The notes under the pieces were generated by a model. It did not search any database, was not told where the DNA came from, and was given only the letters and a program-made list of their open reading frames with translations. Shown piece after piece: positions 7,591-52,339 of a stretch of DNA of 64,000 nt. How positions within the stretch are numbered: the first letter of the stretch is position 1; the number at the start of each line of letters is the position of its first letter. The stretch is from a virus, in IMG/VR virus record IMGVR_UViG_3300019752_000004, positions 1 through 64,000 of that record. One strand, 5' to 3'. A program made the translations under genes and the position numbers.

Positions 7591-7620
7591 TTGACAACAT
7601 ATATAAACTTTTGTATAGAT
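7591..7620 (+). promoter_or_regulatory. sigma70-like early promoter for the ParB/PAPS-reductase pair
   Basis: GTTG-TTGACA-N17-TATAGAT, same architecture as the repeat promoters. Confidence 0.65.
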
Positions 7621-7645
7621 GTTTTAAACATAAAGGATAATTATT

Positions 7646-8779
7646 TTGGATTTATTTACATTGATGGATAAGGTTAAAACAGTAGATTCATTGAAAGAAT
7701 CACTGATGAAAATGGACACCGATGAAATGATTGAAGAAATCAATAAGATTAAAATCATGTTACACGAGATCGGACCATTTAAAGATGAGCCTGTTGACTG
7801 TGTTTTATGGGTGAAGACAGATAATGTTGAGGCAAATGATTACAACCCTAATAGTGTTGCTCCACCAGAAATGGAATTGTTGAGACATTCTATTATGACT
7901 GATGGTTATACACAACCTGTAGTTACATGGGCTAGAGAAGGTGACGGTATCAGAGAAGTTGTTGATGGATTTCACCGAAACCGTGTGTGTCGTGAATGTG
8001 ATGACGTCAAACAGCGTGTAAAAGGATATCTTCCTGTTGTAAATATCAGAAGTGAACAGTCTGATAAAAATGATAGAATGGCATCTACAATTCGACACAA
8101 CAGGGCTAGAGGTAAACATAATGTTGATTCTATGTCTGATATCGTCATCGAATTGAAGAAACGCAACTGGAGTGATAAACGAGTTGGTAAAGAACTTGGA
8201 ATGGATGAAGATGAAGTTCTTCGTCTGTGTCAGGTTTCTGGTCTAACAGAAGTATTCGCAGACGAACAGTTTTCCAATTCATGGGAAGTAAACATTTTTG
8301 AAGATTCTGATCTGGATATTATCGATGAATCTGATATCAAAGATGAAAAGGTTGACGCAAATAGACTTCTTCACACATGGGACAAATGGGAATGTTACCC
8401 AGCTGGTTTTTATGAGGAACATCCACCTAAAGACATGACCAAAGAAGATTGTGAACTGAAATATAAAGAATTGTTGACAGATATTCCAGAATTCACTAGA
8501 TGTATTGATGGTATCATAAAAGATTGGACTAATTCATGTGAACATTATCTGACTAACGAAAAGATGAATAGAATTGCATGGATTGGACAAGCTGCATTGT
8601 GTTGGAAATATGCAATTCCATCTAAATTTAGAGGTGGTTTCAATCTGTTGACTAAAGAAGAAAAAGAAACTGCTGATAAATGTGCGTTGAAAGGTTTGAA
8701 TAGATGGCTGAAAGCAAATGACAGACCAGAATTGGATGAAAATAGTGTAGTATCTAAATCTAAAGCAAATATTTACTAA
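7646..8779 (+). CDS. IbrB/YbdM-like ParB/Srx-domain protein with extra C-terminal domain
   Basis: ANDYNPNSVAPPEMELL, GYTQPVV, VVDGFHR, STIRHNRARGKH and ELGMDEDEVLRL motifs. Confidence 0.88.
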   Translation: MDLFTLMDKVKTVDSLKESLMKMDTDEMIEEINKIKIMLHEIGPFKDEPVDCVLWVKTDNVEANDYNPNSVAPPEMELLRHSIMTDGYTQPVVTWAREGDGIREVVDGFHRNRVCRECDDVKQRVKGYLPVVNIRSEQSDKNDRMASTIRHNRARGKHNVDSMSDIVIELKKRNWSDKRVGKELGMDEDEVLRLCQVSGLTEVFADEQFSNSWEVNIFEDSDLDIIDESDIKDEKVDANRLLHTWDKWECYPAGFYEEHPPKDMTKEDCELKYKELLTDIPEFTRCIDGIIKDWTNSCEHYLTNEKMNRIAWIGQAALCWKYAIPSKFRGGFNLLTKEEKETADKCALKGLNRWLKANDRPELDENSVVSKSKANIY

Positions 8780-8780
8780 T

Positions 8781-9998
8781 ATGCAATTAAAAAAGTACAT
8801 AGATAAAGATGTCCTTACATCTGCTAGAGAGCGTGTTGAATTCACATTCGATAATTTTGAAAACATATGTCTATCTTTTTCAGGTGGCAAGGATAGTACT
8901 GTAATGTTTCATCTGGTTATGGAAGAAGCTATCAAACGGGGCCGCAAAGTGTGCGTAATGCTCATTGACTTTGAAGCACAGTATAAACGAACATCTGACC
9001 ATGCGTTGGAAATGTTCGAAAAGTATGAAAAATACATTGATCTTCACTGGATTTGCTTGCCAATCAAACTAAGAAATGCTAGTAGCAACTTTGAACCTGT
9101 ATGGTGTTGCTGGGATGAAGAACGTAAAGATGACTGGGTTCGTGATATGCCGTCTATCGATGGTGTCGTGAATATGGATAATTGTCCATACCCGTTCTTT
9201 GTACCTAAAATGGAGTTTGAAGAATTCGTTCCACTGTTTGCAGAATGGTACGGTGGTGATACTGAAACTGCTGTGTTCGTTGGAATTCGTGCAGATGAAA
9301 GTCTCAATCGTTTCAGAACGATTGCTGTATTTGATAAGGTGATGTATGACAATAAACGATGGACCACACAAGTAGTTGATAAGGTCTTCAACATTTATCC
9401 AATTTATGATTGGAAAACAAAAGATATTTGGTTATATCATTCTACATATCCAGAGAAGTGTCATAATGAAATATATGATTTAATGCAGAAAGCTGGAGTT
9501 CCATTTTCACAACAACGTTTATGTCAGCCATATGGTGATGATCAGAGGCGTGGACTTTGGTTGTATCATATTTTAGAACCAGAGACATGGTATAAGGTTG
9601 TTGCTAGGGTTAATGGAGTTAACAGTGGTTCTCTATATGTGAAAGAAACTGGTAACATTAATGGATACAACAAAATCAATAAACCAGATGGCCATACATA
9701 TAAATCATTTTGCAATCTGTTATTATCTACAATGCCCGATGTCACTCGTGACCACTATGTAGATTTGTTTAAAAGGCATATCAAAGGGTGGAAAAAACGT
9801 GGGTATGTAAATGAAATTCCTGATGAAGCACCACGGGTGTTGGAAAATAAACAATGGGTTCCTAGTTGGAGGCGACTGTGCAAGGTGCTTCTTAGAAATG
9901 ACTGGTGGGGTAAAGGTTTGGGTATGACTCAGCCTAAAAGTGAAGCATATGGCAAATATCTTAAAATGAAAAAGGCTAGACAGAAATCAAAAAAGTAA
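8781..9998 (+). CDS. IbrA/YbdN-like PAPS-reductase family protein (DUF3440)
   Basis: PP-loop SFSGGKDS, GIRADESLNR, YPIYDW, QRLCQPYGDDQ and PSWRRLCK motifs. Confidence 0.9.
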   Translation: MQLKKYIDKDVLTSARERVEFTFDNFENICLSFSGGKDSTVMFHLVMEEAIKRGRKVCVMLIDFEAQYKRTSDHALEMFEKYEKYIDLHWICLPIKLRNASSNFEPVWCCWDEERKDDWVRDMPSIDGVVNMDNCPYPFFVPKMEFEEFVPLFAEWYGGDTETAVFVGIRADESLNRFRTIAVFDKVMYDNKRWTTQVVDKVFNIYPIYDWKTKDIWLYHSTYPEKCHNEIYDLMQKAGVPFSQQRLCQPYGDDQRRGLWLYHILEPETWYKVVARVNGVNSGSLYVKETGNINGYNKINKPDGHTYKSFCNLLLSTMPDVTRDHYVDLFKRHIKGWKKRGYVNEIPDEAPRVLENKQWVPSWRRLCKVLLRNDWWGKGLGMTQPKSEAYGKYLKMKKARQKSKK

Positions 9999-10000
9999 AA

Positions 10001-10623
10001 TCTACTCTGGTTGGTAATGTATATGGGAGATTGACCGTATTATCTGAGTCATCTCCCCATATATACCCTAGTGGCGCAAAACGTCGAAAATGGTTGTGCG
10101 TATGTGAGTGTGGAAATACACAATAAATGTACTTGACAATAATTTGAAATCAGGCGATACTAAATCATGTGGTTGTCATCAAATAGAATGTTCCACAAAA
10201 CATGGATTGTGTGACCATCCACTATATCAAATATGGATTAGCATGATAAATAGATGTCACAACCCAAACAATAAAGACTATAGTTCATACGGTGGACGTG
10301 GTATATATGTATGTGATGTATGGCGAAATGATATCAACAAATTCATTGAAGATGTTGGTGATAGACCAGATGGATATCAGCTTGATAGAATAAATAACGA
10401 TGGTGGATATCATAAAGACAATGTAAGATGGATATCATCAAAAGAAAATAATAGAAATCGTAGATCAAATAAATTGATATCGCATGATGATAAAACAATG
10501 ACCATGATAGAATGGTCTGAACATTTAAATATGGATTATCAAAAATTGAAAATCTTAATCAATCAAGGCTATGCCTTGGACGAAATAATAAATTTATTGA
10601 GAAGTAGTTACATATTGTTGTAA
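10001..10623 (+). pseudogene. HNH homing endonuclease, frameshifted near 10120
   Basis: One frame reads LVGNVYGRLTVL...WLCVCECGNTQ*. The -1 frame continues INVLDNNLKSGDTKSCGC...YGGRGI...LDRINNDGGY..NVRW.....NNRN. Confidence 0.75.
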
Positions 10624-10757: not shown

Positions 10758-10791
10758 AGGCTCATGATAAAAACGTTTTTATCATGAGCCT
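10758..10791. terminator. perfect 34-bp palindrome, bidirectional terminator between convergent genes
   Basis: AGGCTCATGATAAAAAC|GTTTTTATCATGAGCCT. Confidence 0.75.
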
Positions 10792-49965: not shown

Positions 49966-50064
49966 ATTTAAAAAACTTGTTGACAAGTGAATGAGGTCTG
50001 CATATAACTAGACTCATGGAAGGGAGAATTCCTTAATAACTTAACAAAATGGAGAAAGAAAATG
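49966..50064 (+). repeat. Repeat family B (early promoter plus RBS)
   Basis: TTTAAAAAACTTGTTGACAAGTGAAT..GGTCTG.ATATAACTAGACTCATGGAAGG...AACTTAACAAAATGGAGA. Confidence 0.92.
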
Positions 50065-50336: not shown

Positions 50337-50429
50337 TAAAAACTTGTTGACAAGTGAATATGGTCTGTATATAACTAGACTCATGGAAGGCAAATCCTTA
50401 ATAACTTAACAAAATGGAGATACAAAATG
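50335..50429 (+). repeat. Repeat family B
   Basis: Near-identical to the 49966 and 52241 copies. Confidence 0.92.
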
Positions 50430-52242: not shown

Positions 52243-52339
52243 TTTAAAAAACTTGTTGACAAGTGAATTAGGTCTGCATATAACTAGACTCATGGAAGGC
52301 AAATCCTTAAAAACTTAACAAAATGGAGAAAGAAAAATG
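52241..52339 (+). repeat. Repeat family B
   Basis: Near-identical to the 49966 and 50335 copies. Confidence 0.92.

Follow-up and report, generated by a model that had tools for sequence, protein, structure and literature searches.

A conserved third domain accompanies IbrB and IbrA in one large group of uncultured phages

Does the pairing of a ParB-like protein with a PP-loop enzyme that recurs in phages and prophages include a third partner, and on what would such a system act? The question is raised by a two-gene operon in positions 1 to 64,000 of IMGVR_UViG_3300019752_000004, a viral stretch of 64,000 nucleotides (here, the window) from an IMG/VR record of 82,849 bp that CheckV estimates to be ~53% complete. 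The first gene encodes an IbrB-type protein carrying an additional C-terminal domain, here called X, and the second encodes an IbrA-type enzyme (Table 1). The IbrA/IbrB pair (YbdN/YbdM) is among the most widespread phage and prophage pairs without known biochemistry, and its database labels refer to sulfur metabolism, partition, or a "co-activator." In a passage of PMC9068703, YbdN/YbdM are described in the same terms as IbrA/IbrB. A reading made from the nucleotides alone (the sequence-only reading) had taken the operon for an IbrB/IbrA-like pair with a fused third domain, forming a three-part system for phage DNA modification or antirestriction. The pair itself is known; what looks new is the X domain family, which is undescribed and forms a third part of the system in one large branch of uncultured phages.

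The genomic company that X keeps carries this finding. In the closest-loci sample, which comprises the best 80 of at least 576 IMG/VR stretches encoding X in a scan with an X alignment, ParB, X, and IbrA are consecutive on one strand in 79 loci, and the remaining locus breaks off 143 nt beyond X. Fusion of X to ParB is seen in 58 of these loci, and X is a separate gene of 140 to 168 aa in the other 22; fusion is thus the commoner form among close relatives and is not unusual. In the distant-loci sample, which comprises the best 80 of 423 stretches in a scan centred on distant X sequences, IbrA adjoins X in every locus and ParB is present in 77, the other three being cut by the locus end. The gene orders in this second sample vary (slashes separate genes, and T is a small gene described below): X/IbrA/ParB in 39 loci, X/T/IbrA/ParB in 20, ParB/X/IbrA in 10, IbrA/ParB/X/T in 3, fused ParB-X/IbrA in 2, and others in 6. 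Counted over both samples, X stands next to IbrA in all 160 loci. In addition, a scan of species-representative genomes with a 14-sequence X alignment found 27 X loci, all on contigs of metagenome-assembled genomes (MAGs) with very mixed taxonomic labels; X adjoins IbrA in 24 of them, and of the remaining three, two are truncated and one contains only part of an X. Complete ParB-X/IbrA cassettes occur on contigs assigned to archaeal MAGs in L117, L120 (a MAG labelled Thorarchaeota), and L121 (a MAG labelled Nitrososphaerota), and the other carrier bins bear many unrelated bacterial labels; these cassettes are more likely to lie on viral contigs swept into bins than to be host genes. One viral locus, L172:3160-6634, has two IbrA genes flanking ParB and X (IbrA/ParB/X/IbrA).

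A quick maximum-likelihood tree was built from 160 distinct X domains, without inspection of its branch support. Along this tree, X switches between fused and free 6 times, compared with a mean of 53 changes and a minimum of 43 in 200 shuffles of the labels, which indicates that fusion tracks clades and that a few separate fusion or fission events took place. That the genes stay together through changes of gene order and have fused repeatedly argues strongly for a functional unit. X is very probably a dedicated subunit of the IbrAB system, and the three-part reading is well supported. The sequence-only reading had described X as a separate neighbouring gene in other ibrAB loci and had proposed a neighbourhood analysis of this domain as a check; the description is borne out in the 22 closest loci named above, in most of the second sample, and in four cultured phages, and the predicted third component does accompany IbrA and ParB, whether fused or separate.

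All four of these cultured phages give hidden Markov model (HMM) matches to X. Microcystis phage Mwe-JY13 and Pseudomonas phage Amjad_SA carry a separate X in the order ParB/X/IbrA, and Pseudoalteromonas phage XCL1123 and Mycobacterium phage Nebkiss, as well as a Gaiavirus, carry the order IbrA/ParB/.../X/T. The three-gene cassettes of the cultured phages comprise the same three families as the window, but their X is a separate protein of 116 to 141 aa, and those of XCL1123, Nebkiss, and the Gaiavirus have an extra small gene homologous to the IbrA tail. The Mwe-JY13 X is 47% identical to that of the window. In cultured-phage records, X is annotated as "hypothetical protein" or is mislabelled "ParB/sulfiredoxin"; the free X of L001:4010-4435, Mwe-JY13 XAI95148.1, bears the latter name in GenBank, a label carried over from its neighbour. 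The present assignment corrects these annotations, and the four cultured phages open the three-part form to genetics. As an obligate companion in a large branch of uncultured phages, X also offers a third experimental handle on IbrAB.

As a protein domain, X is real and conserved, has a confident model, and belongs to an unnamed family. The sequence-only reading had described an extra C-terminal domain of ~140 aa, and aa 231 to 377 of the window protein do form such a unit: against 1.84 billion representative proteins, X matches 448 clusters (50% identity) at an E value of ≤1e-3, 124 at ≤1e-10, and 12 at ≤1e-30, and the matches are mostly free-standing proteins of ~115 to 170 aa. No family match to X was found at an E value of ≤10 in Pfam-A or PHROGs v4, ≤0.1 in NCBIfam r20, or ≤0.01 in PADLOC, and seven further X proteins had no PHROG match either. 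In an alignment of 70 X sequences, E19, W64, and N78 are invariant, and W18, G24, S67, L72, A81, G84, Q85, and A117 are conserved in ≥90%. An AlphaFold2 model built from the same alignment is all-helical, with seven helices, a mean predicted local distance difference test score (pLDDT) of 93.5, and a predicted template modelling score (pTM) of 0.87. A sequence profile search of the PDB with X reached a best E value of 0.13, and a Foldseek search of the model against the PDB reached 1.3; with VIA-align, run exhaustively on 48,161 chains, the highest Z score was 4.8 (7qd4_A; root mean square deviation, 4.7; 91 residues), which the program's own guidance places under the chance level for helical models. 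At an E value of ≤0.001, the BFVD viral models contain a single match to X, a phage protein of 116 aa that is 26% identical and is another member of the family, and the ESM Atlas search with X returned nothing usable. The missing fold match does not establish a new fold. A metal site formed by the cysteines of the WEC and SCEH motifs was considered and rejected: 25 of the 70 sequences have D or E in place of C20, 16 lack C68, and the two positions show no covariation. Among the larger proteins with X, P0011 (637 aa) has a 350-aa N-terminal region of unknown nature followed by ParB and then X, and P0077 (282 aa) has a subthreshold wHTH-PRTase-associated match ahead of X.

The two partners of X are an IbrB/IbrA-type pair, as the sequence-only reading had it. 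The first 230 residues of gene 1 have the succession that characterizes IbrB, namely, a ParB/Srx N-terminal domain with a DGxHR-type motif and then a helix-turn-helix (HTH)-like region. Residues 22 to 242 match phrog_2159 ("ParB-like partition protein") with an E value of 5.9e-69, and residues 26 to 216 show 52% identity with the annotated IbrB of Escherichia phage PhiR5_2 (BLASTP; E value, 5e-71), which terminates where the linker of the window protein begins. Both DGFHR and the T.RHNRARGKH motif are invariant in the 37 fused homologues. The Pfam ParB_N match to gene 1 is subthreshold (14.2 bits; cutoff, 26.3), and TIGR04285 (Noc) scores 14 bits against a cutoff of 315. A PDB profile search with the fused IbrB-X protein found nothing at an E value of ≤0.01.

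Gene 2 has all of the hallmarks of the IbrA/YbdN type, that is, a PP-loop domain, DUF3440, and full-length similarity to an annotated IbrA, with 42% identity over 398 aa to that of PhiR5_2 (BLASTP; E value, 2e-116). It matches PAPS_reduct, the phosphoadenosine phosphosulfate (PAPS) reductase family (PF01507; E value, 2.8e-13; 50.7 bits; cutoff, 22.5), and, C-terminal to the PP-loop domain, DUF3440 (PF11922; E value, 8.4e-33; 114.1 bits; cutoff, 25), as well as phrog_2302 (E value, 7e-83). Across 44 IbrA sequences, the SGGKDS loop is invariant except at G35, which is conserved in ≥90%; the mean column identity of IbrA is ~59%. The N-terminal half of the predicted IbrA model (pLDDT, 82.5) folds like the adenine-nucleotide alpha-hydrolases, its nearest solved folds being CysH (E value, 8.5e-7), FAD synthase/FMN adenylyltransferase, CysD, adenosine phosphosulfate reductase, and tRNA thiolases; the DUF3440 half of the model is helical and had no structural match. 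A PDB profile search with IbrA found only distant PP-loop proteins and no closer homologue with a solved structure. Curated models of the known sulfur enzymes fall far short of their cutoffs on IbrA: the CysH models TIGR02057, NF002537, and TIGR00434 give 22.8, 22.9, and 20 bits against cutoffs of 254.2, 154, and 165.1, respectively; the CysD models are far under their cutoffs; and the DndC model TIGR03183 gives 28.2 bits against 290.4 (E value, 8.6e-7), with only aa 161 to 235 aligned. PADLOC likewise gives only weak local matches, to DndC (~1e-6) and BrxP (2.4e-7). Conserved cysteines are required in DndC for its iron-sulfur cluster. No cysteine is invariant in the 44 IbrA sequences, the best being C92 (43 of 44) and C248 (41 of 44), and the window IbrA has G at alignment position 377, where 42 of the 44 have C.

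These results place the operon beside several known systems. The Escherichia coli-type IbrA/IbrB (YbdN/YbdM) pair belongs to the same two families over the full length and has the same combination of PAPS_reduct and DUF3440 and the same ParB-like partner, but no X gene lies within 3 kb of it in PhiR5_2, and its gene order is IbrA followed by IbrB, whereas IbrB-X precedes IbrA in the window. DndB/DndC and BrxP of type 4 BREX (bacteriophage exclusion) also bring together a PAPS reductase superfamily enzyme and a ParB superfamily protein acting on DNA, as described in passages of PMC12839542. In contrast to those systems, the window proteins score far below the family cutoffs and come with no conserved cysteine set, desulfurase, DndD/E, or BREX partners. 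To our knowledge, DUF3440 and X are absent from Dnd and BrxP systems. A similar logic to the one that we propose here is seen in DpdA/DpdB, where, in passages of PMC12839542, a ParB-like ATPase helps a base-modifying enzyme on DNA; the catalytic partner there is a transglycosylase and not a PP-loop enzyme, and no homology to X was seen.

A fourth module links X to the tail of IbrA. Gene T, of 76 to 141 aa, follows X in many loci, has its own start codon in another frame, and overlaps the end of X by 14 to 116 nt. Its product is a homologue of the C-terminal ~70 residues of IbrA (aa ~330 to 403 in the window protein), with the motif W..RGY...IPDE.P.......PS[YW]....A.L.ND, and is present even where the adjoining IbrA seems to retain its own tail. 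A programmed frameshift joining X and T was considered and rejected, since T has its own start in all 25 loci examined (ATG in 23 and TTG in 2) and a conserved N terminus. Single X-T proteins of ~220 aa are suggested by subthreshold Pfam matches to the C-terminal part of DUF3440 in 7 of 26 longer X matches, and also in L133, so that fusions of X with this part of DUF3440 appear to exist; no loci related to one such protein, P0020, were found in the viral collection. In the window, the two modules belong to separate proteins, IbrB carrying X and IbrA carrying T. Separate chains here and joined modules elsewhere are the arrangement expected if X and T make contact between IbrB and IbrA, and from this arrangement we infer that they may do so. 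Contact surfaces for the complex can be predicted from the fused and split forms and from the relation of X to the tail of IbrA.

What such a complex does can be proposed with less confidence. We give roughly even credence to a three-module version of the phage IbrB/IbrA system that acts as a DNA-targeted, ATP-dependent enzyme complex. IbrB, X, and IbrA would work as one complex, which IbrB would bring to DNA, probably in a nucleotide-gated manner as in other ParB/Srx proteins, a group whose members bind both nucleotides and DNA. IbrA would use ATP to adenylate a substrate or to transfer a nucleotidyl group, as members of its superfamily activate their substrates, and the substrate may be a DNA base or a small molecule that is then handed to DNA. 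The conserved polar and aromatic residues of X (the invariant E, N, and W and the near-invariant S, Q, and other aromatic residues) may line a pocket for the substrate or a cosubstrate; alternatively, X may dock IbrB onto the IbrA tail. The output could be a mark attached covalently to nucleotides or to the DNA of the phage or its host, which we advance tentatively and at somewhat less than even confidence, and the probability that such a mark contains sulfur is low. The frequent DNA-acting neighbours in other loci (superfamily 2 [SF2]/SNF2 helicases, YqaJ, the DUF2800 nuclease, C5 methylase, and TerL) count in favor of a DNA-directed function. Comparable roles of ParB-related proteins are found in passages of PMC12839542, in which DpdB assists DpdA and the Dnd system, with DndC as its enzyme, is negatively regulated by the ParB superfamily member DndB, and in passages of PMC5512222, which describe nuclease and NTPase activities of ParB. 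The sequence-only reading had stated that ParB/PAPS reductase pairs were predicted to act in DNA modification; the literature passages retrieved contain no such prediction. A full-text literature search, in which subscription journals were mostly outside the coverage, yielded no paper on the mechanism by which IbrAB works or on any third partner of the pair. In a bolder version, which we regard as rather unlikely, X would be a ligand-binding or catalytic subunit with a new fold that, in many uncultured phages, works with IbrA and IbrB to modify DNA covalently by an undescribed ATP-dependent, non-sulfur chemistry, and other IbrAB lineages would use alternative partners, such as SNF2-like proteins, for different marks. 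If a DNA mark is indeed written, the system would be a new phage DNA modification pathway.

Several points weigh against this proposal. The IbrB-like part was found in 226 phage records, from which 16 cultured-phage lineages were drawn, one per host group and irrespective of X, and X lies within 3 to 4 kb of the pair in only 2 of the 16. No X was found within that distance in the phages PhiR5_2 of E. coli, CHPC1148 of Streptococcus, AQ113 of Lactobacillus, FCV-1 and 6H of Flavobacterium, Athena of Mycobacterium, Salgado of Arthrobacter, Hendrix of Microbacterium, L338C of Rhizobium, Taranis of Faecalibacterium, 035JT001 of Bacillus, phiCs5676-1 of Clostridium, CV-1-33 of Chlorobiaceae, and phiFN37 of Fusobacterium. 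Its absence from 14 of the 16 lineages indicates that the core IbrAB chemistry needs no X, and its presence in only two indicates that X is an accessory third subunit of one large IbrAB branch and not a universal one. Both 80-locus samples consist of the best-scoring matches and are not random draws, and the most distant X sequences (E values of 1e-9 to 1e-3) lie outside them. X has neither a recognizable fold nor a catalytic signature, so that a substrate pocket and an adaptor cannot be told apart. Finally, the binding of the parts to one another and the modification of DNA are proposals here, as are the DNA modification and antirestriction roles put forward in the sequence-only reading.

The genes that surround the system elsewhere bear on the competing explanations. 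In the 80 closest loci, the recurrent neighbours are SF2 helicases, in 18 loci, and a GpA-type TerL directly downstream, in 7 loci, and also AAA_24, DUF2800/PD-(D/E)XK, YqaJ, and C5 DNA methylase. SNF2-type helicases adjoin the pair in phages of Streptococcus, Lactobacillus, and Flavobacterium, and these SF2/SNF2-type helicases suggest a further frequent partner. Individual cases in which such a helicase stands beside IbrAB, with or without X, are L011:5603-7336, L094:5129-6531, L097:451-1689, L098:2812-4023, and L109:1536-2705. In several cultured phages, the pair is at the edge of the packaging module. One 316-aa protein, P0006, begins with a Terminase_2 small-terminase HTH (E value, 1.1e-8), followed by a C-terminal IbrB segment and then X.

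The main rival, which we consider unlikely, is that the system regulates gene expression, in keeping with the published label of a co-activator of phage gene expression: IbrB would bind specific DNA sites through its HTH-like region and its ParB/Srx domain, and no lasting chemical mark would be needed. This label stands in the annotation text of phage records and subsystem tables and in the title of Sandt et al. 2002 as it appears in a reference list. In many cultured phages, the pair immediately precedes the packaging or late module or forms part of it, as in Athena (gp4-5 before the terminase gp6), Salgado, Taranis (close to a RinA-like gene), and FCV-1; together with the TerL genes downstream of the 7 closest loci, this location fits a regulator acting beside late operons in temperate phages. 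The window operon, however, stands behind a sigma-70-like promoter sequence amid the nucleotide metabolism and replication genes of a lytic-type phage, and a late regulator leaves this early-looking position unexplained; in addition, no Terminase_6N match was found in the 82.8-kb record, which is ~53% complete. The near-invariant PP-loop and the high column identity of IbrA point to a conserved enzymatic reaction rather than to DNA binding alone. Regulation does not exclude the enzymatic marking of DNA, and if the system is a regulator, it would be an unusual, enzyme-dependent one.

The same proximity to the terminase, seen in the 7 viral loci and in a number of cultured phages, could mean that the system is an accessory of DNA packaging or processing, in which the ParB-like protein recognizes or prepares a DNA end or pac site for the terminase and X and IbrA assist; the domain composition of P0006 fits this explanation, which we consider quite improbable. 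The genes next to the cassette in most of the 80 closest loci are for helicases or recombination rather than for terminase, no packaging gene is near the operon in the window, and P0006 is a single cluster, the loci retrieved with it showing ordinary ParB, X, and IbrA arrangements and not TerS-X. Moreover, we know of no packaging role for a PP-loop enzyme, and we count this against the explanation.

It is very improbable that the system performs Dnd-like phosphorothioation or another insertion of sulfur into DNA, in which IbrA would play the part of DndC and IbrB that of DndB. The resemblance consists of the weak local similarity of IbrA aa 161 to 237 to the DndC and BrxP models and of the presence of the ParB superfamily protein DndB in Dnd systems, as given in passages of PMC12839542. 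The DndC model score and the cysteine pattern of IbrA described above speak against it, and no cysteine desulfurase or DndD/E-like gene was found among the window open reading frames scanned or the recurrent neighbours sampled. An auxiliary role in sulfur metabolism, in which IbrA would be a true PAPS reductase (CysH) that boosts sulfate assimilation by the host, matches the database label, the product names in phage records and PHROGs, and the CysH-like nearest folds, but is scarcely credible given the curated CysH scores far below cutoff, the additional DUF3440 half, and the obligate pairing with a ParB-like DNA-binding protein in the loci examined.

The layout of the operon in the window is compact (Table 1). 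Only one base separates the stop of gene 1 from the start of gene 2, and the two genes are adjacent and co-oriented, so the sequence-only reading was right in seeing a DGFHR protein followed by a translationally coupled SGGKDS protein. The promoter that it had given the operon can likewise be read in the sequence ahead of gene 1, as a sigma-70-like candidate with a TTGACA hexamer 17 nt from TATAGA, and the operon would be early if this candidate is used as that reading supposed. The pattern TTGACA-N16-18-TATA occurs six times in the window, always on the plus strand, compared with 1.96 expected, and none of 100 shuffles reached six. A consensus promoter scan did not list the candidate at 7591..7619, because its rule requires T at position 6 of the second hexamer.

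Table 1. Coordinates of the operon, of its flanking elements, and of examples of gene T
Feature	Position (nt)	Strand	Description
Sigma-70-like promoter candidate	7591..7619	+	TTGACA 7591-7596, 17-nt spacer, TATAGA 7614-7619; 10 of 12 consensus positions
Shine-Dalgarno-like sequence AAGGA	7633-7637	+	8 nt 5' of the TTG start
Gene 1, IbrB-X fusion	7646-8779	+	377 aa; TTG start; TAA stop 8777-8779
IbrB-type part, aa 1-230	7646..8335	+	ParB/Srx-like domain, DGFHR, T.RHNRARGKH motif, HTH-like C-terminal region
DGFHR motif, aa 107-111	7964-7978		In the IbrB-type part
Domain X, aa 231-377 plus stop (~147 aa)	8336..8779	+	Predicted all-helical; core WEC..G(F/M)Y ... W..SCEH.LTN...NRIAWLGQA ... AN..A ... 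W
Gene 2, IbrA-type	8781-9998	+	405 aa; ATG start at 8781
IbrA-type enzyme	8781..9998	+	PP-loop/PAPS_reduct, aa ~29-222; DUF3440 from aa 239; "T" tail, aa ~330-403 (nt ~9768-9989)
SGGKDS motif, aa 34-39	8880-8897		In the PP-loop domain
HNH endonuclease gene	10108-10623	+	phrog_374 (E value, 9.2e-49); phrog_3377 (E value, 3.4e-47); directly 3' of IbrA
Two-way terminator-like hairpin	10758-10791	.	Perfect 15-bp stem; first after the operon, beyond the HNH gene
Gene T, examples in other loci	L085:4426-4737, L138:726-995, L096:4156-4446		Plus 22 further loci

Among the clusters of genes that recur beside the cassette in the 80 closest loci and whose examples were scanned, there is no HNH gene, and the one that follows IbrA in the window is probably a mobile insert at the end of the operon and not a part of the system. 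No terminator-like site was found between 9998 and 10108. The other window genes include those for NrdD, helicases, topoisomerase II, an SbcCD-like nuclease, a baseplate hub, a DnaB-like helicase, and DNA polymerase, which is the gene set of a large lytic-type tailed phage; a tRNA scan found no tRNA genes. A megablast comparison of the operon and of a 20-kb stretch with 50,697 deposited phage records gave no match, which indicates a phage without a close cultured relative. Elsewhere in the window, three near-identical promoter-like sequences (TTGACAAGTGAAT..GGTCTG.ATATA) lie on the plus strand at 49980-50006, 50347-50373, and 52256-52282, within 2.3 kb and 5' of tail-region genes, and from their sequence they look like a phage-specific promoter family.

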